Shown here: positions 7,551-58,434 of the stretch, one piece after another
Layout: every line of letters starts with the position of its first letter
Position numbering within the stretch: position 1 is the first letter of the stretch
Assembly (NCBI GenBank): GCA_965205235.1
Contig: CBDBGD010000008.1
Location: 106,629 to 170,628, forward strand
Direction of reading: 5' to 3'
Source of the DNA: Dehalococcoidia bacterium
Lineage (GTDB): Bacteria > Chloroflexota > Dehalococcoidia > Lucifugimonadales > UBA1127
Length of the DNA: 64,000 nt
Program-made: the position numbers and the translations under genes
The notes under the pieces: generated by a model
Seen by the model: the letters and a program-made list of their open reading frames with translations, nothing else
Databases searched by the model: none
What the model was told of the DNA's origin: nothing

Positions 7551-8660
7551 GTGAAGAGCGTTGAGATCGATCGCAGCAAACCCCTGGCCGGCGAGCCCCA
7601 TACCGGACATAACCGCTGGCACCCTGACCTCACGCCCGTCCTGGAGGTGGACGAGGGAGAGGAGGTCGTCCTTCCCACGCGGGACGCGCTCGACGGGCAG
7701 TTTGACGCCTCCACCACCGTGGCCGACTTCGGCAACCTCAACCCCGGTCCCATCCATCCGCTCACGGGGCCGGTCTACGTGAAAGGCGCCGGCCCGGGGG
7801 ACCTGCTGGAGGTGGAATTCCTGGACATCCAGCCCGAACCGTGGGCGTTCACGTGCATCATCCCTGGGCTGGGCTTCTTGCGAGACCTGTACGAAGCCCC
7901 CTTCATGGTGCACTGGAACATCGCCGATGGCTGGGCGACGTCGCCCCAGCTTCCGAATGTGCGCATCAAGGGCGCGTCGTTCATGGGCGTATCGGGCGTG
8001 GCGCCGTCGCACGACGAGGTGCAGCGTTGGGCGCAACGGGAGCAGGACCTGGTGGGCCGCGGCGGCTTTGCCTTCCCCCCCGATCCTGGGGGTGCAGTCC
8101 CCGTCGACGGGGCGGCCGCCACCGACGGCCTGCGGACCGTCCCGCCCCGGGAGAACGGCGGCAACTTCGACGTCAAGCAGCTCTCAAGCGGGTCGAAGCT
8201 CTACCTGCCCGTCTCCGTCGAGGGTGCTCTCTTCTCGACTGGTGACGCCCACTTCGCCCAGGGCGACGGCGAGGTGTGCGTGACCGCCGTCGAGATGGGG
8301 GCGACGGCCAACGTGCGCTTCCGGGTGCTCAAGGGCGAGGCGAGCCGTCGGAATATCCAGGCGCCCCTGTTCAGCCGCAGCGACTACTTCATCGACCCCG
8401 CTTGGGCGTCGCCGCAGAGGTTCACCGCGACGATGGGCATGCCCATCGCTCCGGACGGCACGAACGAGGGCGAGAACCTGACCCTGGCCTGCCGGAACGC
8501 TCTCCTGGCCATGATCGACCTGCTGGTAGACCGGGGCTGGAGCAGGGAGCAGGCGTACTGCATCTGCAGCGTGGCGGTTGACCTGCGCATCAGCAACGTG
8601 GTGGACGTTCCCAACTACGTGGTCTCGGCCCTCCTGCCGGAGGACATGTTCGTCCAGTAG
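7551..8660 (+). CDS. Acetamidase/formamidase family protein
   Basis: Start chosen at GTG 7551 (AGGAGA Shine-Dalgarno at 7541-7546). N-terminus VKSVEIDRSKPLAGEPHTGHNRWHPD is the characteristic FmdA/AmdA opening. The ORF track's upstream extension to 7401 has no support. Confidence 0.85.
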   Translation: MKSVEIDRSKPLAGEPHTGHNRWHPDLTPVLEVDEGEEVVLPTRDALDGQFDASTTVADFGNLNPGPIHPLTGPVYVKGAGPGDLLEVEFLDIQPEPWAFTCIIPGLGFLRDLYEAPFMVHWNIADGWATSPQLPNVRIKGASFMGVSGVAPSHDEVQRWAQREQDLVGRGGFAFPPDPGGAVPVDGAAATDGLRTVPPRENGGNFDVKQLSSGSKLYLPVSVEGALFSTGDAHFAQGDGEVCVTAVEMGATANVRFRVLKGEASRRNIQAPLFSRSDYFIDPAWASPQRFTATMGMPIAPDGTNEGENLTLACRNALLAMIDLLVDRGWSREQAYCICSVAVDLRISNVVDVPNYVVSALLPEDMFVQ

Positions 8661-8703
8661 CCGCGACGGGTCGGGACGTTTGGGCGCTCCGAGCGCTGTG
8701 TCG

Positions 8704-9393
8704 CTACTGGGCTTCGGGCGACGGGATGGTGGGGTCTGCGGCGCGCAGTGTGAAGTACTCCATGAGCGGCGCGAACTCGTTGTAGACGCGGCGGAGCTCG
8801 CCCACCGGCTCGTCGTGGAGGTCCACCCGCAGGTCCGTTCGGGAGAAGACCTCCCGGTCGAACACGACCAGGCCGGAGGAGCGCTGCCCGCCGTGCTGGC
8901 CGCCGGCGTCTCGCCCGGCCTCGATGGCCCGCAGTAGGCGCTCCTCCAGCACCTCGTCCTCAGACTCCTCGAAACCGCGTGCGATGGCCTCCGCCACGTG
9001 TCCGCCCAAGAGCACGTTGCCCATGGCCACGTAGTCGCGGCCGGTGATGTGCCCCGCCCAGTCCTTGTTCTCACTGCCCGTGCGGGCGGCTGAGTTGCCG
9101 TCCCTGTCGACGATCCCTATCTGTCGGTGCTCGATGTAGGGGTCGCTGGCGGCGACCTCCTCCAGCACCTTGGGCGCGGAGAAGCCCTGCTCCAGGAGGC
9201 GCAGGGCCAGTCGGCCCAATCGAGGGTCTGTGCTGGCCTGCGTGGCGACAGCGCCGACGTTCGCCTGGACGTAAGGACACCGGCTGGCCACGGCCATGGA
9301 GCGGGTAGTGATCCCCACGCCAAGTGCGCCGGTCCGCCGGCAACGGCCCATTATAGAGAACGTGTGAAAAGAGATGCCGCGTACAAGGTCCAT
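8704..9393 (-). CDS. DUF1028 family protein (Ntn-hydrolase-like)
   Basis: 229 aa from ATG 9393. FSIMGRC...GVGITTRSMAVASRCPYVQANVGAVATQASTDP...HRQIGIVDRDGNSAARTG...GGQHGGQRSSGLVV matches the DUF1028 pattern. The rest of the 506-aa ORF (to 10224) is antisense to the next gene. Confidence 0.8.
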   Translation of the reverse strand: MDLVRGISFHTFSIMGRCRRTGALGVGITTRSMAVASRCPYVQANVGAVATQASTDPRLGRLALRLLEQGFSAPKVLEEVAASDPYIEHRQIGIVDRDGNSAARTGSENKDWAGHITGRDYVAMGNVLLGGHVAEAIARGFEESEDEVLEERLLRAIEAGRDAGGQHGGQRSSGLVVFDREVFSRTDLRVDLHDEPVGELRRVYNEFAPLMEYFTLRAADPTIPSPEAQ

Positions 9394-9528
9394 GACGTGC
9401 TCCTGCCGATGGGGGTTGGAAGACGGGGCCATTGTTGACCAACGGTCAGTGTTCGTCAATCGCCATGGGGCCGCAGGCCGGTGCTGCGTAGCTTGTGGCG
9501 CCCAACTTCGCCATGCTACCATCCGGCG

Positions 9529-10716
9529 ATGATCGCTAGCCGAGGAAACAGAGGGCAGCCGACAGCCGACGCAGTGGTCGTGGGCGGCGGGGTCATAGGC
9601 TGCAGCATCCTCTACAACCTGGCGACCCTGGGCATGAAGCGCCTCCTTCTGCTGGAGCAGGGCATCCTGGCGGGCGGCGGCAGCGGCCTGTCCCAGGCCA
9701 TCCTGCGGCTGCACTACTCCAACCCCATCACCACGCTGCTGTCGTGGCACAGCCTCAAGCTGTTCCAGGACTTCGAGGAGGCCGTGGGCGGGCCCTCCGG
9801 GTACGTGCGCACGGGCTACCTCCTCCTCGCCGCCGCCGAGGACCGCGAGGCCCTGGAAGCGAACGTGGCCATGCAGCGGGAGATGGGCGTGGACACCCAC
9901 GTCCTCTCCCAGGCTGAGGCTCGGGAGGTCGCGCCCATGCTCGACGTGGACGACGCGGCCGGCATCGCCTACGAGCCCCAGTCGGGCTACGCCGACCCCT
10001 CGTCCGTGGCGACCACCTACGCCCGACGCGCTCGGGACATGGGCGCAGAGGTGCGACTGTCGACGGAGGTGACGGCCATCCGGCTCGCGGGCGGGCGGGT
10101 CGTGGGGGTGGAGACGCCGGCGGGCGTCGTGGCGACGCCGACCGTGGTTGTCGCGGCGGGGCCGTGGTCGAACTCGCTGCTCGCCTCCGTGGGCGTCGAC
10201 CTGCCGCAGAAGCCCATGCGGCACCAGGTGCTCACGCTAGAGCGTCCGCTCGACGTGCTGCCCTCGCACCCGACGGTGGCGGACCTCATCAACGAGTTCT
10301 CCTTCCGGCCCGAGGGCGGAAACCTGACCCTCCTCAGCTACGGCGAGGAGGACTGCGAGCTGGAAGGCTACAACCCTGGCGTGGAGATGCGGCTGGCGTC
10401 GGAGGCGCTGCCACGACTGGCGCGGCGATGCCCTGCGTTCGCCCAGGCCACGTTCCGAGGAGGCTGGGCCGGCCTCTTCGACGTCACGCCGGACTGGCAC
10501 CCCATCCTCGACCGGGTGGAGGGCATCGAGGGACTGTACGCCGCGACGGGGTTCAGCGGGCACGGCTTCAAGCTGTCGCCGATGGTGGGGGTGGCGATGG
10601 CGGAGCTCATCGCCCAGGGCCGCTCGACGAGCTTTGACATCACGCCGCTGCGATGGAGCCGCTTCCGCGAGGGAGCACTGATGGACTCCCGCTACCGCTA
10701 CCGCGTCCTGGCCTGA
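9529..10716 (+). CDS. FAD-dependent oxidoreductase (DAO / sarcosine-oxidase-beta-like)
   Basis: Dinucleotide fold ADAVVVGGGVIGCSILYNLA near the N-terminus and a GFSGHGFKLSP C-terminal motif. ATG 9529 is preferred over GTG 9481. Confidence 0.82.
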   Translation: MIASRGNRGQPTADAVVVGGGVIGCSILYNLATLGMKRLLLLEQGILAGGGSGLSQAILRLHYSNPITTLLSWHSLKLFQDFEEAVGGPSGYVRTGYLLLAAAEDREALEANVAMQREMGVDTHVLSQAEAREVAPMLDVDDAAGIAYEPQSGYADPSSVATTYARRARDMGAEVRLSTEVTAIRLAGGRVVGVETPAGVVATPTVVVAAGPWSNSLLASVGVDLPQKPMRHQVLTLERPLDVLPSHPTVADLINEFSFRPEGGNLTLLSYGEEDCELEGYNPGVEMRLASEALPRLARRCPAFAQATFRGGWAGLFDVTPDWHPILDRVEGIEGLYAATGFSGHGFKLSPMVGVAMAELIAQGRSTSFDITPLRWSRFREGALMDSRYRYRVLA

Positions 10717-13940: not shown

Positions 13941-16058
<2,118 letters not shown>

Positions 16059-16172
16059 CAATTGTGTCTGTTTCTTACGTGTGGTCCCTTTTACCGGACC
16101 TTCTTCCCACATTCCAGCTGTTAAGGTGCTCTTGCGCGCCGCGAGCGTTACCACCCGCGAGGCGTACCCGCC

Positions 16173-27791: not shown

Positions 27792-28475
27792 CTACGCCGT
27801 CTGCTTCGCCGCCGCCCAGGTGGTGATGAGCTCCTCCGACATGGGGCTGTCGTAGCGGTCGAGGAGGAGCTTGACGCCCAGGTCGTGCTTCTCATGGTTG
27901 CTCATGGTGATGCAGTCCTGGGCCATGAGCACGTAGTAGTCGTGGGCGTAGGCGCCGATGGCCGTCTCGAGCACGCAGCCGGTGGTGGCGGTGCCGGTGA
28001 CGACGACGCTCTCAATGCCGTTGGAGCGCAGGACCTGGTCCAAGCGCGTGGCCCAGAAGGCGCCGTTGCGGTTCTTCCGCACGATGATGTCGCCGGACTG
28101 GGGCGCGAGCTCCGGGATGGTCTCGTGGCCCCAGGTGTCCTCTACGCAGACCTGCAGCGGCATCTTGTTCCTGCCGCCGGTGGGGCGCTCCCGGTACCAG
28201 TAGTGGATGTAGGCCGGGGCCACGGTGGCCAGGCTCTTCTCCACCACGTACTGGATGTAGATGATGGGCACCTTGGCCGCGCGGGCCGCGTCGAGCAGCA
28301 CGCGGAGAGGCTCGATGATGCGCCGGTTGCCTGCGATGTTCTCGCCGCCCTTCGACAGCAGCCCCTCCGGGTCGCAGAGGTCGTTCTGCATGTCGACGAC
28401 GATGACGGCGGTGTGCGCCGGGTCCGCAAGCTCGTCCAGGGTGTCATAGACCGAGTGGCCGAGAATCTCCTTCAC
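27792..28475 (-). CDS. Isochorismatase-family cysteine hydrolase, paralog 1 of 4
   Basis: 227 aa. TAVIVVDMQNDL (Asp), IIVRKNRNGAF (Lys), VVVTGTATTGCVLETA (Cys). GTG start with AAGGAGAAGG Shine-Dalgarno. Confidence 0.85.
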   Translation of the reverse strand: MKEILGHSVYDTLDELADPAHTAVIVVDMQNDLCDPEGLLSKGGENIAGNRRIIEPLRVLLDAARAAKVPIIYIQYVVEKSLATVAPAYIHYWYRERPTGGRNKMPLQVCVEDTWGHETIPELAPQSGDIIVRKNRNGAFWATRLDQVLRSNGIESVVVTGTATTGCVLETAIGAYAHDYYVLMAQDCITMSNHEKHDLGVKLLLDRYDSPMSEELITTWAAAKQTA

Positions 28476-28522
28476 GTTCCTTCTCCTTTCGTCAGGGCGG
28501 CTCTAGAGCGCCCGTTGGGAAA

Positions 28523-29188
28523 CTAGGACCAGAGTCCCACCAGCTCGTCCGAGGTCACGCTCACGTAGCGGTCGACCAGGACGGCCAGGCCCTTCTGATG
28601 GCGCTCCTGGTTCGTCTCTGCGACGCCGTCGGTGAGGACGGCGGTGTAGTAGTCGTAGGCGTGGGCGCCGACGGCCGTGTCGAGGACGCAGCCGGCGGTG
28701 GCGGTGCCCGTCACGACGACGCTTTCGATGCCGTGGCCGCGCAGGGCCTTGTCCAGGTTGGTGGCCCAGAAGCCGCCGCGCCGGGTCTTCTCGATGATGA
28801 AGTCCTCCGGCTCGGGGGCCAGCTCCGGCACCACCTCCCAGCCCCAGCTCTTGTCGAAGAGCGCGTCCAGGGCCACCGTCGGCGTCTCCGGGTCGACGTT
28901 GCCGTTGTAGCAGGAGTGGATCCACGCCGGGGCCATGGCCGAGCGCAGGTCGTCCTGGGTGTAGACGATGTAGACGATGCGCACGCCCGCCTGTCGCCCC
29001 GCCTCGATGGTCCGACGGAGCGGCTCCAGGATCTCCAGCTTGGGGCCAACGTCGTGGCCGCGCTTGGCGGACCACCCGTCAGGCGACACCAGGTCGTTCT
29101 GCATGTCGACAACCAGGATGGCCGTCTGCTCGGGTCGCAGTATCTCCTCTGTGGTCTGATAGACCGGCTTTCCGTGCACCTCAATCAT
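28523..29188 (-). CDS. Isochorismatase-family cysteine hydrolase, paralog 2 of 4
   Basis: 221 aa. TAILVVDMQNDL, FIIEKTRRGGF, VVVTGTATAGCVLDTA. GAGGAGG Shine-Dalgarno. Confidence 0.85.
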   Translation of the reverse strand: MIEVHGKPVYQTTEEILRPEQTAILVVDMQNDLVSPDGWSAKRGHDVGPKLEILEPLRRTIEAGRQAGVRIVYIVYTQDDLRSAMAPAWIHSCYNGNVDPETPTVALDALFDKSWGWEVVPELAPEPEDFIIEKTRRGGFWATNLDKALRGHGIESVVVTGTATAGCVLDTAVGAHAYDYYTAVLTDGVAETNQERHQKGLAVLVDRYVSVTSDELVGLWS

Positions 29189-29224
29189 GGGCTCCTCCTC
29201 GCAGTTGTGTTCGTCGTATCGTAT

Positions 29225-29923
29225 CTACGCCGCCACCGGCCTCGCCGCTGAAGCCCAGCAGGTGACGAGGTCCTCGGCGGACGGCCCGAGGTAGCGCTGC
29301 GCCAAAAAGGCCATGCCGAGCTCGTGGCCCGTGGGGTCGTTGGTCGCCACGCAATCCTTGGCGTAGACGGTGTAGTAGTCGTTGCCGGCGGCGCCGACGG
29401 CGGTGTCGAGCACGCAGCCGTGGGTGGCGGTGCCGGTGATGACCACCGTGTCGATGCCGTTGCCGCGCAGCACCTTGTCCAGGTTGGTGCCCCAGAAGCC
29501 GCCCATGTTGTTCTTCAGAACGCAGACGTCGCCCGGCTCGGGGGCCAGCTCCGGGATGACCTCCCAGCCCCAGGTGCCCTCGAAGCAGGCCTCCATCTCG
29601 ACGCGGTAGGACCGCTTGCGCTCGCCCATGTACTCCAGCACGCCGCCCTGGTGGACCCACGCGGGCGTTGCGAGCCGGTGGCCCTTGTCCATGGTGTACT
29701 GGATGTAGACGATCATCACACCGGCCTGCCGGGCGGCGTTGATGACGGTGCGAATGGGCTCGATGATGCGGCGGTTGGCGCCGATGTCCTCGCCGACCTT
29801 GTCCAGGAAGCCGTCGGGGGAGACCAGGTCGTTCTGCATGTCGACGACGATGACCGCGGTGTGCGACGGGTCCAGAAGCTCCTCGAAGGAATCGTAGATC
29901 GGGGTATCGAAGTCTATCCTCAT
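29225..29923 (-). CDS. Isochorismatase-family cysteine hydrolase, paralog 3 of 4
   Basis: 232 aa. TAVIVVDMQNDL, VCVLKNNMGGF, VVITGTATHGCVLDTA. GAGGAGG Shine-Dalgarno. Confidence 0.85.
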   Translation of the reverse strand: MRIDFDTPIYDSFEELLDPSHTAVIVVDMQNDLVSPDGFLDKVGEDIGANRRIIEPIRTVINAARQAGVMIVYIQYTMDKGHRLATPAWVHQGGVLEYMGERKRSYRVEMEACFEGTWGWEVIPELAPEPGDVCVLKNNMGGFWGTNLDKVLRGNGIDTVVITGTATHGCVLDTAVGAAGNDYYTVYAKDCVATNDPTGHELGMAFLAQRYLGPSAEDLVTCWASAARPVAA

Positions 29924-29971
29924 GCCCTACCTCCTCAACGTTGTGCTGTGTATCGAGCCGGCGGGTCGACC

Positions 29972-30301
29972 CTAGCCGGCGTCCTTCTCGACGACGACCG
30001 CAGTGCCGTACGCGAGTATCTCCGACGCGCCCGACATGACTGCGGACGTCGTATACCTGACGCCGACGACGGCGTTTGCGCCGAGCGCATTCGCCGCGTC
30101 GATCATGATGCCGGTGGCCTCGGCGCGTGCGGCGGCTAGGAGCTGCGAGTACTCGGGCACGTCGCCGCCCTTGATGCCGCGGAGCCCGGCGGTGATGTCC
30201 CGACCGATGCCGCGCGTCCTGACGGCGTTGCCCTGCACCAGCCCCTTCACCTCCACCACGCGCACACCGGGCACCGTGTCCGTCGTCGCAAGAAGCGTCA
30301 C
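29972..30301 (-). CDS. YbjQ/UPF0145 family protein
   Basis: About 109 aa from GTG 30301. VEVKGLVQGNAVRTRGIGRDITAGLRGIKGGDVPEYSQLLAAARAEA...ANAVVGVRY matches the YbjQ pattern. The GTG overlaps the upstream TGA (GTGA). The ORF track's longer start would overlap paralog 4 by 49 nt. Confidence 0.75.
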   Translation of the reverse strand: MTLLATTDTVPGVRVVEVKGLVQGNAVRTRGIGRDITAGLRGIKGGDVPEYSQLLAAARAEATGIMIDAANALGANAVVGVRYTTSAVMSGASEILAYGTAVVVEKDAG

Positions 30302-31017
30302 GCCGATGCCTCTTCGCCTGCGCCGTTGCCGTCGGCGGCCGCCCACAGGGCGAGCAGCTCCTCGGACGACGGCCCGTCGTAGCGGGCGGCGAGCAGCTTC
30401 ATCCCCACCTCGTGGGTCTTGGGGTTCATGGTGGTCACGCAGTCCCGGACGTAGACGGTGTAGTAGTCGTTGGCCGCTGCGCCGACGGCCGTGTCGAAGA
30501 CGCAGCCGGACGTGGCGGTGCCCGTCACGACCACGGTCTCGATGCCGTTGCCGCGCAGGATCTTGTCCAGGTTGGTGTCCCAGAAGCCGCCCAGGTGGTG
30601 CTTCTGCACCAGGATGTCGCCCTCCTCCGGCGCCAGCTCCTCGATCACCTCCCAGCCCCAGGTGCCCTCGAACAGGCCCTCAAGGCTGGAGATGCCCTTC
30701 TTGGCGGGCGAGAGGAGCGTGCCACTGAACAGCCGGATACCGTTGTACACCCACGCGGGCGTTACCGTGGGCAGCCCCGGATGGATGGTGTACATGATGT
30801 AGATCACGGGGATGCTCGCCTCGCGGGCGCCCTGCAGCAGCACGCGCAGGTCGCCGATGATGCGCCTGTTGCCCTCCAGTTCAGCGCCGTTGCGGTCGGC
30901 GAGGCCGCCGGGCGCGACGAGGTCGTTCTGCATGTCGACCACGACCACCGCCGTGTGCGACGGATCGACCACCTCCGCCAGCGAGTCGTAGACCAGTTTG
31001 CCGTAGGCTTCCTTCAT
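30298..31017 (-). CDS. Isochorismatase-family cysteine hydrolase, paralog 4 of 4
   Basis: 239 aa. TAVVVVDMQNDL, ILVQKHHLGGF, VVVTGTATSGCVFDTA. GGAGGAGGG Shine-Dalgarno. Confidence 0.85.
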   Translation of the reverse strand: MKEAYGKLVYDSLAEVVDPSHTAVVVVDMQNDLVAPGGLADRNGAELEGNRRIIGDLRVLLQGAREASIPVIYIMYTIHPGLPTVTPAWVYNGIRLFSGTLLSPAKKGISSLEGLFEGTWGWEVIEELAPEEGDILVQKHHLGGFWDTNLDKILRGNGIETVVVTGTATSGCVFDTAVGAAANDYYTVYVRDCVTTMNPKTHEVGMKLLAARYDGPSSEELLALWAAADGNGAGEEASA

Positions 31018-31035
31018 ACGCCCTCCTCCCGCTCG

Positions 31036-32949
31036 TCAGTCTCCCAGGAACTTGGCGACGTGGGCGGCGGCGCGGCGCAGCGCGTCGGCCACCGTCTCGG
31101 GTCGCCAGTCGTACCAGCCGTGGTGCTCGCAGTTGTACTGGATGAACTCCACGTACTTCCCCTTGGCTTTGGCCTGGCGGAAGTAGTCCTGGGCCATGCT
31201 AATGCGCACGCCGTCGCGGTCGCCCCAGAGGAACAGCAGCGGCGTGACGATGTTGTCGAGGTTGTAGACGGGGGAGCGCTCCATCCAGTGGTCGAGGGCG
31301 ATGTCCGGGCCGCCGTAGTCGCCGCCGACGACGTCGCCGAGGGTGGACCTGCCGGCGGCGGAGCCGTAGCGCTCCATGTGAACGAGGTCCGGCGGGCCGT
31401 AGAAGTTGATGGCAGCCTTGATGAGGTCCGGGTAGCGGGAGATGGTCTGGTTGGTGAAGTAGCCGCCCGTGCTCCCGCCGTGCATGGCCACCCTGGCCGG
31501 GTCGATGAGGCCCTGGCTCGCCAGGTGCTCCACGCCGGCCGCGATGTCGTCGACGTCGCCGCCGCCCCAGTCGCCGAAGTTCATGGTCTCGTAGACCTTG
31601 CCCAGGCCGCCGCTGCCTCGCACCTCGGGCGCGAGGACGGTGTAGCCCTTGCTGCACCAGTACTGGATGAAGGGGTAGAAACCGTTGACGTGGAAGCCGT
31701 GGATGTTGGCCCGGGCGAAGATGACCAGCGGCGTCGCGCCCGTCGCGCTCGGCGGCCTGTACAGCCACGCAGGCACCTCCAGCCCGTCCTTGGACGCGTA
31801 GCGGATGAGCGTGGGCTCGACGAACGCGCTGCGGTCCAGGTCCTTGGGCATGTGGTCGGTGATCTGTCGAGGCGCGCCGCCGCTGACCGGGATGGCCCAC
31901 AGGTCGCTGCAGGTCTGGTAGTCCGCGTGGGTGTAGACGATCTCCTTGCCGTCGGGCGTCCAGGCCAGGGAGCCGCGGACCTGGCTGCCCTCGTAGCCGC
32001 CGTTGATGCCGTCGCCCTGGGTGAGCTGGATGGGCTCGCCGCTGCCGTCGGCGGCGACCAGCATGATATGGAAGTTCCAGCTCTTGCTGGCCGTGTAGGC
32101 GATCCACTTGCCGTCCGGGGAGAAGTAGGGGTTGTTCTCGTCCCACTCGCTGGTGGTGAGCATGGTGGTCTCGCCGGTGGCGACGTCGATGACGCCGATG
32201 TTGCGCCACCCCGTGCGGTCCGAGACGAAGGCGATGCGCGTGCCGTCGGGCGACCATCGGGGGTGCGAGTCGTGGTGGTCCTTGGTGTTGGGCGTCAGGT
32301 TGCGAGCGGGGCCGCCCGAGATGGGGGCGATGAAGACGTCCATGCGCTTGTTGTCGGCATAGCCGCTGCGGTCCGACTGGAAGGCCACCCACTGGCCGTC
32401 GGGCGAGAGCTGGACGTTGGTGTTGTTCCACTCGTCGTTGGTGATGAGGCGAGGCCGGATCTTGCCCGTGGGGATCTCCGTGGGCAGGGCCTTGACCTGG
32501 CTGTGCCCGGTGGGGCCGCCGCCGGTGAAGACTACCTCACTGCCGTCGGGCGTCCATCGAGTCCACTCGTTGTAGCGGCCGGGGCTGTTGTCGTAGGTGA
32601 TGTTGTAGGGGGCCTCCGTGCCGTCGGCGCGGACGATGTAGAGGTTGCCGGTGGGCGAGGAGTAGCGGGCCCCGTAGGAGATCCACTCGCCGTCGGGCGA
32701 CCAGGAGGGGACGAGGCACTGCTCCGGGTACATGTGCACGATGCAGCGGTTGTTGGAGCCGTCGATGTCGACGACCCACAGGTCGTAGCCGCCGCTCTCG
32801 GCGGAGACGTAGGCGATGCGGGAGCCGTCGGGGGAGATGGCGAAGTCCTCCACCTTGGCGTTGGTGCGTGCCAGCGCGTCGATGAGGGGATCGTCGGGGA
32901 GCACGGGGGGTTCGGGGAACGTGGCGCCGCGGTTGTAGTGCGCAGCCAT
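31036..32949 (-). CDS. S9 family serine peptidase with TolB-like beta-propeller
   Basis: 637 aa. Six blades (WSPDGEWISY, WTPDGSEVVF, LSPDGQWVAF, WSPDGTRIAF, FSPDGKWIAY, WTPDGKEIVY). Hydrolase domain with HGGSTGGYF and GDRDGVRIS. Confidence 0.88.
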   Translation of the reverse strand: MAAHYNRGATFPEPPVLPDDPLIDALARTNAKVEDFAISPDGSRIAYVSAESGGYDLWVVDIDGSNNRCIVHMYPEQCLVPSWSPDGEWISYGARYSSPTGNLYIVRADGTEAPYNITYDNSPGRYNEWTRWTPDGSEVVFTGGGPTGHSQVKALPTEIPTGKIRPRLITNDEWNNTNVQLSPDGQWVAFQSDRSGYADNKRMDVFIAPISGGPARNLTPNTKDHHDSHPRWSPDGTRIAFVSDRTGWRNIGVIDVATGETTMLTTSEWDENNPYFSPDGKWIAYTASKSWNFHIMLVAADGSGEPIQLTQGDGINGGYEGSQVRGSLAWTPDGKEIVYTHADYQTCSDLWAIPVSGGAPRQITDHMPKDLDRSAFVEPTLIRYASKDGLEVPAWLYRPPSATGATPLVIFARANIHGFHVNGFYPFIQYWCSKGYTVLAPEVRGSGGLGKVYETMNFGDWGGGDVDDIAAGVEHLASQGLIDPARVAMHGGSTGGYFTNQTISRYPDLIKAAINFYGPPDLVHMERYGSAAGRSTLGDVVGGDYGGPDIALDHWMERSPVYNLDNIVTPLLFLWGDRDGVRISMAQDYFRQAKAKGKYVEFIQYNCEHHGWYDWRPETVADALRRAAAHVAKFLGD

Positions 32950-33061
32950 GTAACGCCTCCACTCGGGCGGGTACCCTGGGGTGGGGCCATTCTAGGTAGG
33001 CGGTGGGGGTTTGGTCAAGCGTAGGGGGAGTGGGGGGTGAAGGTCGGCGTTCCGACGCACG

Positions 33062-55749: not shown

Positions 55750-57402
55750 CTAGATCGCCAGTATGCGCTTCGCAACCTCCCTTGCGCCGTCCAGGTCCTC
55801 GACGAAGTTCTCCTCGGGCACGTGCCGCAGCACGTTCAGCGCGCTGAGCGTGGTGGCGGGGAGGCCCGTCAGCCCCATCACGATGCAGTTCACGTCCTCC
55901 GCCATGGCCCCGTCGATGAGTTGCTCCATGACCAGGGCGGCGCTGTCGTCCATGTAGACGGTGTTGGAGAAGTCCAGGATCACAATCTCATGGTCGCGTA
56001 TGTCCACGCTGATGGTGTTGATCATCTTGGCAGCGGACGCCACGGAGAAGTTCCCTCGCAGCGCAACAAGCCCAACCCGTGCGGAGAAGATGTCCGCATC
56101 GTCGCCGTCGGCGCTGTTGGTGCCCAGAAATGCCTGGTCCAGCAGCGGCGTGGAGACCACGCTGTCCAGCTCCAAGCGCTCGAACTGCCGCGCGCTGGTC
56201 ACCATCGCGGCGATCATGCCGACGACGACCGCGGTGAGCAGGTCCAGGAACACGGTGAGCACCAGGGTCAGCAGCATGACCATGAGGTGCTCCCGCTGGA
56301 CGTGGAGGACCCGCGTGACGAAGCGCCAGTCGATCGTGTCCCAGCCCACCTTGATCAGGATGCCGGCGAGGACGGCGTTCGGGATGGAGGCCACCTGCTC
56401 CCCCAGGACGACGACCATGGCAACCAGGACGCCCACGGCGATGATGCCGGACACGATGGTCCATCCCCCGGCAACGATGTTCGCCACGGTGCTCGGCGTG
56501 GCCCCGGCGCCCGGCAGCCCGCCGATCAGCCCCGTGACCATGTTCCCGAGGCCCTGGCCCAGCAGCTCCTTGTCGGGGTTATGGCGCGCCCGCGTGTGCG
56601 AGTCCGCCACCAGAGAGGTGAGGAGCGTGTCGACGGAGCTTACCAGCGCGATGACCAGCGCGGGCTCGATTGCGCGGAGCAGGAAGTCGCCGGAGAAGTC
56701 CGGCACCTGCAGCGTCGGCCACGTCGTCGACACCGTGCCGATTACCGGCGCGTCGGTGAGCCAGACGACACCCAGGAACGTCCCCGCGACCAGCGCCACC
56801 AGCGTGTACGGCATGTACCGGCTCACCCGGCTCGGCCACAGCGCCGCCACCGCCAGCGTGATCGCGGCGATGCCCAGCGCGTCGATGTTGAAGTCCTCGA
56901 TGAGGTCCGGCCACGATTTGATGGCGCCAACCGGCCCGCCCGCGGCGATGTTCCCGCCCATGAAGGGGAGGCTCTGCACCAGAATGATGATGATCCCGAC
57001 GCCGGACATGAACCCGGATATGACGGAGTAGGGCGTGTACGCGACGAAGCGCCCGATTCTCATGACGCTCAGGAGGATCTGGATCAGCCCCGCCATCATG
57101 ACGATGGTGAACGCTTCGACCAGGGAGTCCGCACGGCTCGTGACGATGACCGCCATCGCCACGGTCATGGAGCCCGTGGGGCCGGAGATCTGCGACCGGG
57201 TGCCCCCGAAGACGGCTGCGAAAAAGCCGACTGCGATGGCCCCGTAGATGCCCGCAAGCGGCCCCAGGCCGGAGGCTATGCCGAACGCCAGCGCCACCGG
57301 CAGTCCCACCACGGCCGCGGTGACGCCGCCGAAGACGTCCCCCCTCAGGGTCTGTAGGTCGTAGTCCTCGGGGGGCCGCCAACCGAGGATGCGGCGGAGC
57401 AT
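55750..57402 (-). CDS. SulP family anion transporter with C-terminal STAS domain
   Basis: 550 aa from ATG 57402. LRGDVFGGVTAAVVGLPVALAFGIASG, many TM helices, and C-terminal EIVILDFSNTVYMDDSAALVMEQL. Confidence 0.88.
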   Translation of the reverse strand: MLRRILGWRPPEDYDLQTLRGDVFGGVTAAVVGLPVALAFGIASGLGPLAGIYGAIAVGFFAAVFGGTRSQISGPTGSMTVAMAVIVTSRADSLVEAFTIVMMAGLIQILLSVMRIGRFVAYTPYSVISGFMSGVGIIIILVQSLPFMGGNIAAGGPVGAIKSWPDLIEDFNIDALGIAAITLAVAALWPSRVSRYMPYTLVALVAGTFLGVVWLTDAPVIGTVSTTWPTLQVPDFSGDFLLRAIEPALVIALVSSVDTLLTSLVADSHTRARHNPDKELLGQGLGNMVTGLIGGLPGAGATPSTVANIVAGGWTIVSGIIAVGVLVAMVVVLGEQVASIPNAVLAGILIKVGWDTIDWRFVTRVLHVQREHLMVMLLTLVLTVFLDLLTAVVVGMIAAMVTSARQFERLELDSVVSTPLLDQAFLGTNSADGDDADIFSARVGLVALRGNFSVASAAKMINTISVDIRDHEIVILDFSNTVYMDDSAALVMEQLIDGAMAEDVNCIVMGLTGLPATTLSALNVLRHVPEENFVEDLDGAREVAKRILAI

Positions 57403-57633
57403 ACCAGGCGTTTCCCGCCTGACGCGGCTGGAGAATGCGTCCAAGAACCCCTCCACGGTTGCGTGTCTTCCCTGGTCGGCGGCTTTTTCGCCGCGCGGAA
57501 GCCTGCGGAACGGCCTCGTGCCCCCGCATTCTACGGGACGATGGCGTGATTGTCCAAGTGCCCGCCGATTTGGGACCATCGTGGTGTATCCTGAAGGGGC
57601 AGAGAACGGATGAACGCGCTGGAGGGGCATGTC

Positions 57634-58113
57634 ATGCCGGAGAAACTGGTGCAGGGCGACCGCTTCCCAACAATCGGGCTATCCCTCACGGACGGGTCCA
57701 CCCTTACGCTCCCCGACCAGGCCCCCGGCCGCTACGTTGCCCTGCTGTTCTTCCGAGGCGCGTGGTGAGGCTACTGCAGGCGGCAGTTGGCCGCCTACCA
57801 GGGCAGCATCGATGCGCTGGACGAGCTGGGCGTGACGGTCGTCGCTGCAACGGTTGACGACCGGGATGCGGTGGCGGACATGGTCCGGGAGGAGGGCATC
57901 ACCTTCCCCGTCGCCTACGGCGTCACGCAGGAGGCGGTGGGCGCCCTGTCGCCGTGGTGGACGGAGGACAACCGGCACGGGCGCTACCTCCAGCCCATGG
58001 AGTTCCTGGTTCGGCGCAGCACAGTGCTGGGCTCCATGTACGCCTCCGGCCCCATCGGGCGGATGGACGTGGAGCAGGCGCTGGCCTTCATCAGGAGCCG
58101 GGAGCAGCGGTAG
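57634..58113 (+). CDS. Peroxiredoxin-like (AhpC/TSA, thioredoxin-fold) protein with an in-frame TGA at codon 45: probable selenoprotein (UxxC)
   Basis: GGAGGGG Shine-Dalgarno, then ATG 57634. Translation reads ...RYVALLFFRGAW-TGA-GYCRRQLAAYQGSIDALDELGVTVVAATVDDRD...GITFPVAYG. The TGA (57766-57768) is exactly where the first Cys of the FxRGxWCxxC redox motif belongs. The frame stays open to 58113. A hairpin follows the TGA. Confidence 0.65.
57774..57806 (+). promoter_or_regulatory. SECIS-like stem-loop downstream of the in-frame TGA
   Basis: Upper stem AGGCGGC(57778-84)/GCCGCCT(57790-96), 7 bp, with apical loop AGUUG. Lower stem CUGC(57774-77)/GCAG(57803-06). The apical loop starts 17 nt after the UGA. 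Confidence 0.5.
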
Positions 58114-58134: not shown

Positions 58135-58434
58135 ATGAGGAGGCAGCGAGTGGACGTGAAAGAGGCGGTCCGGACGGCCAAGGCGTACCTCATCGACCTC
58201 TTCGAGGACGAGCAGATCACCAACGTCGGCCTTGAGGAGGTGGTGTTCGACGAGGAGTCGGCTGCGTGGAGGATCACCATCGGCTTCTCCCGGTCGTGGG
58301 ACCTCAAGGGCCCGCTGTCCGTGACGATGGCCGGCGCGAGCCCCGACCGCTCGTACAAGATGCTCAGCATCAACGACGCCACGGGCAAAGTCGAGTCGCT
58401 TCGGGACCGCGTCCTGTGGGCCGCGGAAAGCTGA
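58135..58434 (+). CDS. Hypothetical small protein
   Basis: 94-99 aa (ATG 58135, or GTG 58150 preceded by AGGAGG). No motif I recognise. Starts 21 nt after the putative selenoprotein gene. Confidence 0.45.
   Translation: MRRQRVDVKEAVRTAKAYLIDLFEDEQITNVGLEEVVFDEESAAWRITIGFSRSWDLKGPLSVTMAGASPDRSYKMLSINDATGKVESLRDRVLWAAES

Follow-up and report, generated by a model that had tools for sequence, protein, structure and literature searches.

A very probable selenoprotein gene with a UxxC redox motif on a peroxiredoxin-like scaffold, and a candidate SECIS hairpin behind its UGA codon, in a Dehalococcoidia bacterium

Introduction

Does the in-frame TGA at positions 57766–57768 end a short gene, or is it read as selenocysteine inside a longer one? 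The question is raised by a locus on the forward strand of a 64-kb stretch of Dehalococcoidia DNA, which was analyzed as a whole and is called the window below. A sequence-only reading of this stretch had proposed a peroxiredoxin-like selenoprotein gene with the TGA at the position of the redox Cys, followed by a stem-loop resembling a bacterial SECIS element. The proposal has precedents, since a Prx-like selenoprotein family that carries UXXC instead of TXXU is already established (PMC1088965, PMC2398784, PMC13188914). A review of 2026 counts the Prx-like thiol:disulfide oxidoreductase (PF00578; UxxC, UxxU) among the high-confidence predictions (PMC13188914).

We examined the reading frame and its conservation in relatives, the protein family and predicted fold, the RNA downstream of the TGA, the selenocysteine (Sec) machinery, and the neighboring genes. 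Taken together, the data make it very probable that 57634–58113 is a selenoprotein gene in which UGA 57766–57768 encodes selenocysteine. The best explanation for its product is a cytoplasmic peroxiredoxin-fold UxxC thiol-disulfide oxidoreductase with the center U45-G-Y-C48.

Results

Gene organization and reading frame

Between ATG 57634 and TAG 58111–58113, the forward strand holds a single gene of 159 codons, and its sole interruption is TGA 57766–57768, with 44 sense codons before it and 114 after it. The complete selenoprotein coding sequence would occupy 57634–58113 (+) and specify 158 residues plus the stop, with Sec as residue 45. The in-frame UGA at 57766–57768 (+), read as U45, would be position 1 of the UxxC redox motif, and the second residue of the motif, Cys48, is encoded by UGC at 57775–57777 (+) and is invariant in the homolog alignment. 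Translation verified the description given earlier, a 44-codon ORF that continues in the same frame to 58113. The joined product reads ...YVALLFFRGAW up to the TGA and GYCRRQLAAYQ... behind it, which is the FxRGxWCxxCxxQL block that had been reported, with the TGA in place of the first Cys.

The Shine-Dalgarno motif that had been noted before ATG 57634 is present: a GGAGGGG, read from the sequence at 57621–57627 (+), is separated from the start codon by a 6-nt spacer. Translation could also begin at a second in-frame ATG, at 57610. ATG 57634 appears likelier because the N-termini of homologs match its residue in the homolog alignment.

The expectation that standard gene callers would split this gene proved right. 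Public-database gene calls cut it into pieces of 52 aa and 108 aa, and on near-identical metagenome contigs, the gene callers likewise set a 52-aa ORF beside a 108-aa ORF. The records at NCBI, ENA, and JGI contain the 108-aa fragment, the pair of 52 aa and 108 aa, or a spurious Trp at the Sec site.

Conservation of the TGA codon in relatives

A protein search with the joined product as the query was performed against 5.8 billion proteins. It returned dozens of matches of ~108 aa, whose alignments are confined to the 3' 68% of the query (60–99% identity), and a smaller set of full-length matches of 164–205 aa at 52–59% identity. The ~108-aa matches represent the same gene, truncated at the TGA. 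The alignment with full-length Cys homologs extends across the TGA from one end of the protein to the other, and the Cys forms are single uninterrupted genes; the two halves are thus not normally separate genes, an arrangement that would have spoken against the selenoprotein proposal. In 12 full-length homologs, the TGA column corresponds to the first Cys of W-C-P-Y-C, so that U45 and the redox Cys coincide in the alignment, as had been anticipated. Two other residues were found in this column, and neither was accepted as a counter-example at the Sec site: W occurs in a few JGI proteins, whose underlying DNA has TGA translated as Trp under another code table, and S occurs in one ENA protein, where the codon is TCA, one base from TGA.

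A scan with one genome per GTDB species yielded 80 loci, nearly all of them in Dehalococcoidia MAGs, many of which are complete chromosomes of 2–4 Mb, with SAR202 and other Chloroflexota in addition. TGA stood at exactly the matching codon in 77 of the first 83 loci. Over all 167 related loci, which likewise come almost entirely from Dehalococcoidia and other Chloroflexota, this codon was TGA in 163 gene copies, TGC or TGT in 11, and TCA in 2, and the protein identity to the window product ranged down to ~50%. Even when a metagenome scan was seeded exclusively with Cys forms, most of what it returned were TGA forms.

The entropy at codon positions 1/2/3 was calculated for 80 Sec-form genes; the 44 codons before the TGA gave 0.77/0.49/1.41, and those behind it gave 0.78/0.56/1.48. 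The two flanks of the TGA thus vary as coding sequence of a single reading frame does, which rules out a pseudogene, a sequencing error, or a pair of unrelated genes. A real pseudogene does occur among the related loci (L077), and it carries an extra stop and a change of Cys48 to Tyr.

Protein family, fold, and redox center

For the Pfam search, Cys was substituted for the stop in the joined 159-aa query. The product matched AhpC-TSA (PF00578; 3e-18, 66.4 bits, cut-off 26) and Redoxin (PF08534; 2e-15, 57.1 bits, cut-off 26.6), both above the curated cut-offs. No NCBIfam model scored above its cut-off, and the best sub-threshold ones were ResA (34 bits, cut-off 170) and a redox protein related to SelL (20 bits, cut-off 120). 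The AlphaFold2 model, built on an alignment of 18 sequences, had a pLDDT of 90.3 and a pTM of 0.87. A Foldseek search of the PDB gave Bcp4 (3hjp) as the first match (E = 5e-13, TM 0.85 over the full length) and hundreds of other Prx matches. The predicted fold draws on both halves of the gene, with strands at residues 14–39 upstream of the TGA. The earlier assignment to the AhpC/TSA (redoxin) thioredoxin-fold proteins is therefore borne out, both by Pfam and by the Prx/BCP fold of the model.

By sequence, the nearest solved proteins were ResA thiol-disulfide oxidoreductases (4nmu, 3e-7). The product shares with ResA, StoA, and TlpA the W-C-x-x-C block residue for residue, U45 aligning with the first Cys of the ResA motif, its N-terminal nucleophile. 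It differs from them in an overall fold nearer to BCP-type Prx, in extra C-terminal elements, and in having Sec for Cys. With BCP/PrxQ peroxiredoxins, it has in common the best structural match, Bcp4 3hjp, and the alignment of Cys48 with the peroxidatic Cys. In a BLASTP comparison with an approximate E. coli BCP sequence, U45 fell on the catalytic Thr of TxxC and Cys48 on the peroxidatic Cys. In the Prx frame, the motif is R41-G-A-W-U45-G-Y-C48, in which, relative to the same approximate BCP sequence, Pro is replaced by Arg41 and Thr by Sec. The PxxxTxxC active-site motif of true peroxiredoxins was not found in the product, which reads RxxxUxxC, with Arg for the conserved Pro and Sec for the catalytic Thr. 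In Sec-containing peroxiredoxins (TxxU), by contrast, it is the peroxidatic residue that is Sec.

The alignments thus argue for a thioredoxin-like UxxC redox center carried by a Prx scaffold, in which Sec does not take the place of the peroxidatic Cys. The claim of Sec at the redox Cys of a peroxiredoxin-like gene holds in the sense that U45 is at the first Cys of CxxC; it does not hold for the peroxidatic position, which belongs to Cys48, U45 lying at the catalytic Thr. In the AlphaFold2 model, U45 is located just before the helix of residues 47–57, and the position before the helix is the usual place of the nucleophilic CxxC residue. The Sec45-Cys48 pair would most likely act as a selenenylsulfide/selenol-thiol couple that reduces disulfides and possibly peroxides.

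A hydrophobic N-terminus, as read from the sequence, is absent, and for this reason the UxxC protein is probably cytoplasmic, unlike ResA and TlpA, which are membrane-anchored and extracytoplasmic. Two Cys-form homologs adjoin genes for Grx-Pyr_redox_2 or Pyr_redox_2/dim flavoproteins, and these neighbors are a weak hint at the electron donor.

RNA structure downstream of the UGA codon

A bacterial SECIS hairpin had been proposed immediately behind the UGA. Its upper stem and loop are present in the minimum-energy structure: in the hairpin at 57778–57796 (+), hereafter model A, AGGCGGC (57778–57784) pairs with GCCGCCU (57790–57796) around the loop AGUUG (57785–57789), and the loop begins at the 17th nt after the UGA, as had been stated. 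RNAfold gave 57760–57815 an energy of −28.2 kcal/mol (z = −2.4), which was matched by 7 of 200 dinucleotide shuffles; the fold of the window alone is only modestly better than chance, and the case is carried mainly by the comparison of relatives. The full minimum-energy structure (57763–57811, +) includes lower stems that embed the UGA. A lower stem of CUGC with GCAG (57803–57806) had been described; RNAfold instead pairs CUG 57774–57776 with CAG 57799–57801, and the lower stems of the window fold are not conserved in orthologs. The covariance-model check detected no Rfam SECIS family at E <= 10 in 57600–58000, a negative of little weight given the diversity of bacterial SECIS elements and their poor coverage. 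A second hairpin, model B (57773–57787, +; ACUGC / AGGCG / GCAGU), is mutually exclusive with model A.

Codons 46–54 had a third-position entropy of 0.69, half of the ~1.45 found elsewhere in the gene. Synonymous sites were compared between 130 distinct Sec-form and 10 Cys-form segments. Arg50 was G-ending in 109 of 115 Sec forms and in 2 of 9 Cys forms (Fisher p = 7e-7). The codon of Leu52 ended in a purine in all 130 Sec forms vs. 4 of 10 Cys forms (p = 2e-8) and was UUR in 112 of 130 vs. 1 of 10 (p = 9e-7), while Ala53 was GCC in 99/108 vs. 2/7 (p = 2e-4). For Gln51, CAG was used in 127/128 Sec forms and in 4/5 Cys forms (p = 0.07); at the nearby Gln56, taken for comparison, Sec forms had 55 CAG to 30 CAA. 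The string conserved in Sec forms is UGC-NNN-NGG-CAG-YUR-GCC. This pattern shows selection on the RNA 3' of the UGA that is not present in the Cys forms. The motif GGCAGUURGCC occurred 116 times in 1.8 Mb of loci, 109 times within the UxxC gene family. None of the other 7 occurrences lies behind an open in-frame TGA, so there is no sign that the motif is shared with other selenoprotein genes in this sample. The mean folding energy was −14.1 kcal/mol for Sec forms and Cys forms alike; overall hairpin stability was rejected as a discriminator, and only the specific structure and sequence differ.

In the ortholog alignment, model A was defined as columns 16–22 with 28–34 and the loop AGUUR. Its cells were paired in 73.5% of cases over 129 sequences, against 66% in shuffles and 21–47% with the partners slid, and its covariation score was 0.184 against 0.104 in shuffles, none of 500 shuffles reaching 0.184. 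Covariation was located in pairs 17–33 and 18–32, the latter being GC in 52 and CG in 30 of the 129 sequences. Variants of the L098 and L113 type (CGC...GCG) keep a register-shifted model A of 6 bp, and model B is broken in them. The part conserved across the family is the core GGC-AGUUR-GCC at 57782–57792 (+). In 63 of 130 orthologs, the contiguous stem of model A shrinks to the 3 bp of GGC/GCC, and in a distant clade, designated SYC (L063–L083), to <=2 bp; pair 19–31 is mismatched in 81 of 129 sequences, usually as C·A.

It is possible, although we consider it the less likely reading, that the gene encodes a selenoprotein whose SECIS is hairpin B, perhaps extended by an outer UGGU/GCCR helix in which the UGA takes part, or that the SECIS depends on the clade. 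Model B was 95% paired in 129 sequences and had 5–6 contiguous bp in 117 of 130, and RNAalifold selected it together with the outer helix. CUGCC-NNN-GGCAG persists in the SYC clade, where model A is reduced to its <=2 bp, and L091, judged by eye, seemingly uses another hairpin further downstream. Against model B, no compensatory change was found in it among the 129 sequences, its 5' arm coincides with the protein-fixed Tyr-Cys codons, and its 3' arm is made of nucleotides that are also required by model A. It leaves unexplained the third-position purine of Leu52 and the covariation of pairs 17–33 and 18–32. Its loop is only 12–13 nt from the U of the UGA, a shorter distance than that of described bacterial SECIS elements. 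With the UGA in the A-site, this loop would probably be inside the mRNA channel of the ribosome. In the window, model B is also 5.9 kcal/mol less stable than model A (−19.5 vs. −25.4 kcal/mol).

Model A, or at least its GGC-AGUUR-GCC top, is therefore favored as the putative SelB-binding element over model B and clade-specific alternatives, because it shows covariation, accounts for the constraint on Leu52 and Ala53, and places a loop G-U ~20 nt after the UGA. The last feature reportedly resembles the G23/U24 geometry of the E. coli fdhF SECIS. From the SECIS proposal, the best local fold with a conserved, covarying top is retained; its lower part is not family-wide, and it has a competitor in hairpin B.

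The candidate element resembles bacterial SECIS elements (PMC1088965) in being a stem-loop within the coding sequence, right 3' of the UGA, with a small G-containing apical loop. Unlike described ones, it has a very short conserved stem (GGC/GCC) and a lower stem that is variable or mismatched in most orthologs.

Selenocysteine machinery and genetic code

A tRNA-Sec search by ARAGORN, which covered the window and 1.8 Mb of related loci, was negative. Neither selA nor selD was found there by tblastn, a weak negative because the E. coli queries were approximate, and no sel-type Pfam domain was present in the 20 window ORFs sized to fit SelB, SelA, or SelD. The lack of Sec machinery in the window says little because 64 kb is a small share of the genome. 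We infer the Sec machinery of the host genome, and with it SelB-dependent decoding in this organism, from the class-level literature on Dehalococcoidia. BSepDB, whose selenoprotein search was limited to species having two or more of SelA, SelB, and SelD, has two Dehalococcoidia MAGs in its top ten, with 49 and 46 selenoprotein genes (PMC13326102).

The genes for ProRS, a SpoIIE-phosphatase, and a DAO protein in the window stop at TGA with complete domains. TGA is therefore an ordinary stop elsewhere, which excludes a change of the genetic code and makes the recoding site-specific. Three further TGA sites were considered as selenoprotein candidates and rejected. The TGA-joined pair 32991..30298 (−) consists of two ordinary genes, for a peptidase S9 and an isochorismatase; TGA 19162 (+) is antisense to a large gene; and TGA 63683 (−) lies in low-complexity, off-frame sequence. 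The UxxC gene is the sole credible in-frame-TGA gene in the window.

Readthrough of the UGA without selenocysteine, through a suppressor tRNA or a near-cognate tRNA that inserts Trp or Cys, for example, would give a W/CxxC protein. We regard this as very unlikely, even if the Sec machinery of the host genome rests on inference and JGI pipelines print W at the Sec site. That W is TGA read with another code table, the active site would not survive a Trp at what is the redox-Cys position, and TGA serves as a normal stop in other genes of the window. The selection on the downstream hairpin, specific to TGA forms, is a signature of SECIS-dependent decoding, and Dehalococcoidia are documented as Sec-utilizing (PMC13326102).

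The reading of the TGA as a genuine stop, whether in a pseudogene, through a sequencing error, or between two genes (a peptide of 44–52 aa and a 108-aa protein from TTG 57787), agrees with the two pieces annotated by the NCBI and ENA gene callers and with the absence of visible Sec machinery in the window, but it is effectively refuted by a TGA fixed at one codon in ~160 diverged copies with mostly third-position variation on both flanks, by the uninterrupted Cys forms, by a fold that needs the strands upstream of the TGA as well as the downstream half, and by the different appearance of the real pseudogene.

Neighboring genes

Upstream and divergent from the UxxC gene lies a gene for a SulP-family anion permease with a STAS domain (55750..57630, −; Pfam Sulfate_transp, 4e-71, plus STAS). 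A SulP/STAS ortholog adjoins the Sec gene in 15 of 81 loci, which belong to separate clades. The permease gene is divergent in the window and in its relatives L001 and L004; in the distant SYC clade, it lies on the same strand and ends ~60 nt upstream of the Sec gene. The remaining recurrent neighbors reflect clade-specific synteny.

A small ORF of 99 aa (58135..58434, +) starts 21 nt downstream of the UxxC gene. It had been reported as unknown, and it indeed matched nothing in Pfam and NCBIfam. It adjoins the UxxC gene only in L001, L002, and L004, and with its adjacency limited to these closest relatives, it was rejected as a partner of the UxxC protein; the two genes are possibly co-transcribed.

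Discussion

The gene at 57634–58113 fits, by its sequence features, the already known Prx-like thiol:disulfide oxidoreductase, or Prx-like 1, selenoprotein family of Zhang and Gladyshev (PMC1088965, PMC2398784, PMC1794560, PMC13188914). It shares with this family the PF00578 domain and UxxC in place of the TxxU of Prx selenoproteins, the existence of Cys homologs, and a SECIS-like hairpin directly after the UGA. The assignment rests on the domain, the motif, the Sec/Cys pair, and the hairpin; Prx-like 1, whose published representative is the Geobacter protein WP_010940744.1, is itself known from sequence prediction rather than from biochemistry. What stands out in the Chloroflexota subfamily is the large excess of Sec over Cys forms (163 vs. 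11 in a sample chosen by similarity), unlike in the GOS data, where Prx-like 1 (pfam00578, UxxC) comprised 225 Sec and 2,740 Cys sequences (PMC2398784).

According to the mechanism that we propose, UGA 57766–57768 would be recoded as selenocysteine during translation. SelB with Sec-tRNA(Sec) would be recruited by the stem-loop just downstream within the coding sequence, most likely the hairpin at 57778–57796, whose AGUUG loop would present its G-U ~20 nt after the UGA. Sec45, which in the folded enzyme would cap helix 47–57 at its N-terminal end, would be the attacking nucleophile and would form a selenenylsulfide with Cys48 during turnover.

A more far-reaching idea, and in our opinion an improbable one, is that this subfamily, which occurs almost solely in Chloroflexota and consists almost wholly of Sec forms, has its own lineage-specific minimal SECIS, consisting of a 3-bp GGC/GCC stem and the conserved AGUUR loop with interchangeable flanking helices, and that the enzyme is coupled to the SulP/STAS permease. 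If true, the minimal SECIS would lie outside current bacterial SECIS models, and the coupling could mean, for example, reduction of an imported sulfur or selenium oxyanion.

The finding adds little to the biology of selenoproteins as such, UxxC Prx-like selenoproteins and selenoprotein-rich Dehalococcoidia both having been described. Its practical value is the correction of annotation in NCBI, ENA, and JGI records: because these contain fragments or a spurious Trp, Dehalococcoidia and SAR202-type bacteria, abundant groups in the ocean, sediment, and groundwater, have proteomes from which the enzyme is missing. Moreover, the 130 Sec-form and 10 Cys-form sequences constitute a natural experiment on what a coding-region SECIS demands at synonymous sites, and this set could help refine bacterial SECIS models.

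Variation at the selenocysteine codon

Four JGI protein records homologous to the Sec gene (P0036, P0038, P0041, and P0048) print Trp at the selenocysteine position, within the motif WWPYC. The underlying DNA has TGA at this codon, as at L084:162-656 (JGI Ga0683312_0188176), and the triplet was therefore translated as Trp by the pipeline. The WWPYC proteins are Sec forms masked by an annotation artefact. In two gene copies the Sec codon is TCA (Ser), which differs from TGA by a single base: locus L085:71-574, where the hairpin sequence is still present downstream of the codon, and the second copy of locus L127, where the codon starts at position 1624. In these copies, Sec was recently exchanged for Ser or the codon contains a sequencing error.

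The TGA form at L091:536-601 grouped by sequence with the Cys forms and had 75% identity to the homologous protein P0015. The usual motif downstream of the TGA was absent from this locus, with CAC CUG GUA in its place. By eye, an apparent 7-bp hairpin (CCUGGUA/GGC/UACCAGG) could be recognized, its loop lying about 27 nt after the UGA. This locus may have been converted from Cys to Sec independently and may have a candidate SECIS of its own, as judged by eye. The ortholog at L077:10001-10477 had a second in-frame stop in addition to the TGA, and Tyr in place of Cys48, the second residue of UxxC. This copy is probably in decay and serves as a useful contrast to the conserved Sec genes.

Many organisms possess the Sec gene in two copies, some in tandem and others at distant loci of one chromosome. 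Such cases were found on metagenome contigs (L092-L094, L100, L101, and L123) and in genomes (OZ244564.1, CBDCEF010000004.1, and CBDCTF010000007.1). Tandem copies were spaced by about 530 nt and had TGA in both genes; one tandem partner was a divergent W-U-Q-F-C variant with the loop AUUUG.

Other features of the window

The window contained a complete bacterial 16S rRNA gene at 14553-16062 on the minus strand (1462 bits). Since neither 23S nor 5S rRNA had a match anywhere in the 64 kb, the rRNA genes do not seem to be linked. Three ORFs arranged head to tail in tandem, with similar lengths of 233-236 codons and GC3 of 0.92-0.95, were located at 27792-29926 on the minus strand.

Neighboring genes and possible functional partners

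Two Cys-form homologs directly follow genes of the flavoprotein disulfide-reductase type, in one case a Glutaredoxin-Pyr_redox_2 fusion (L086:271-1479) and in the other a gene with Pyr_redox_2 and Pyr_redox_dim (L087:1-1171). The encoded flavoproteins are possible candidate electron donors for the Sec/Cys oxidoreductase family. The only Sec-gene neighbor recurring in separate clades was a SulP/STAS anion permease (15 of 81 loci). In the window's clade it is divergent from the Sec gene (window 55750-57630, minus strand), and in the distant 'SYC' clade (L063-L083, around 8200-9940, plus strand) it lies on the Sec gene's strand, about 60 nt upstream. This recurrence across clades hints at a functional link between the anion transporter and the Sec oxidoreductase.
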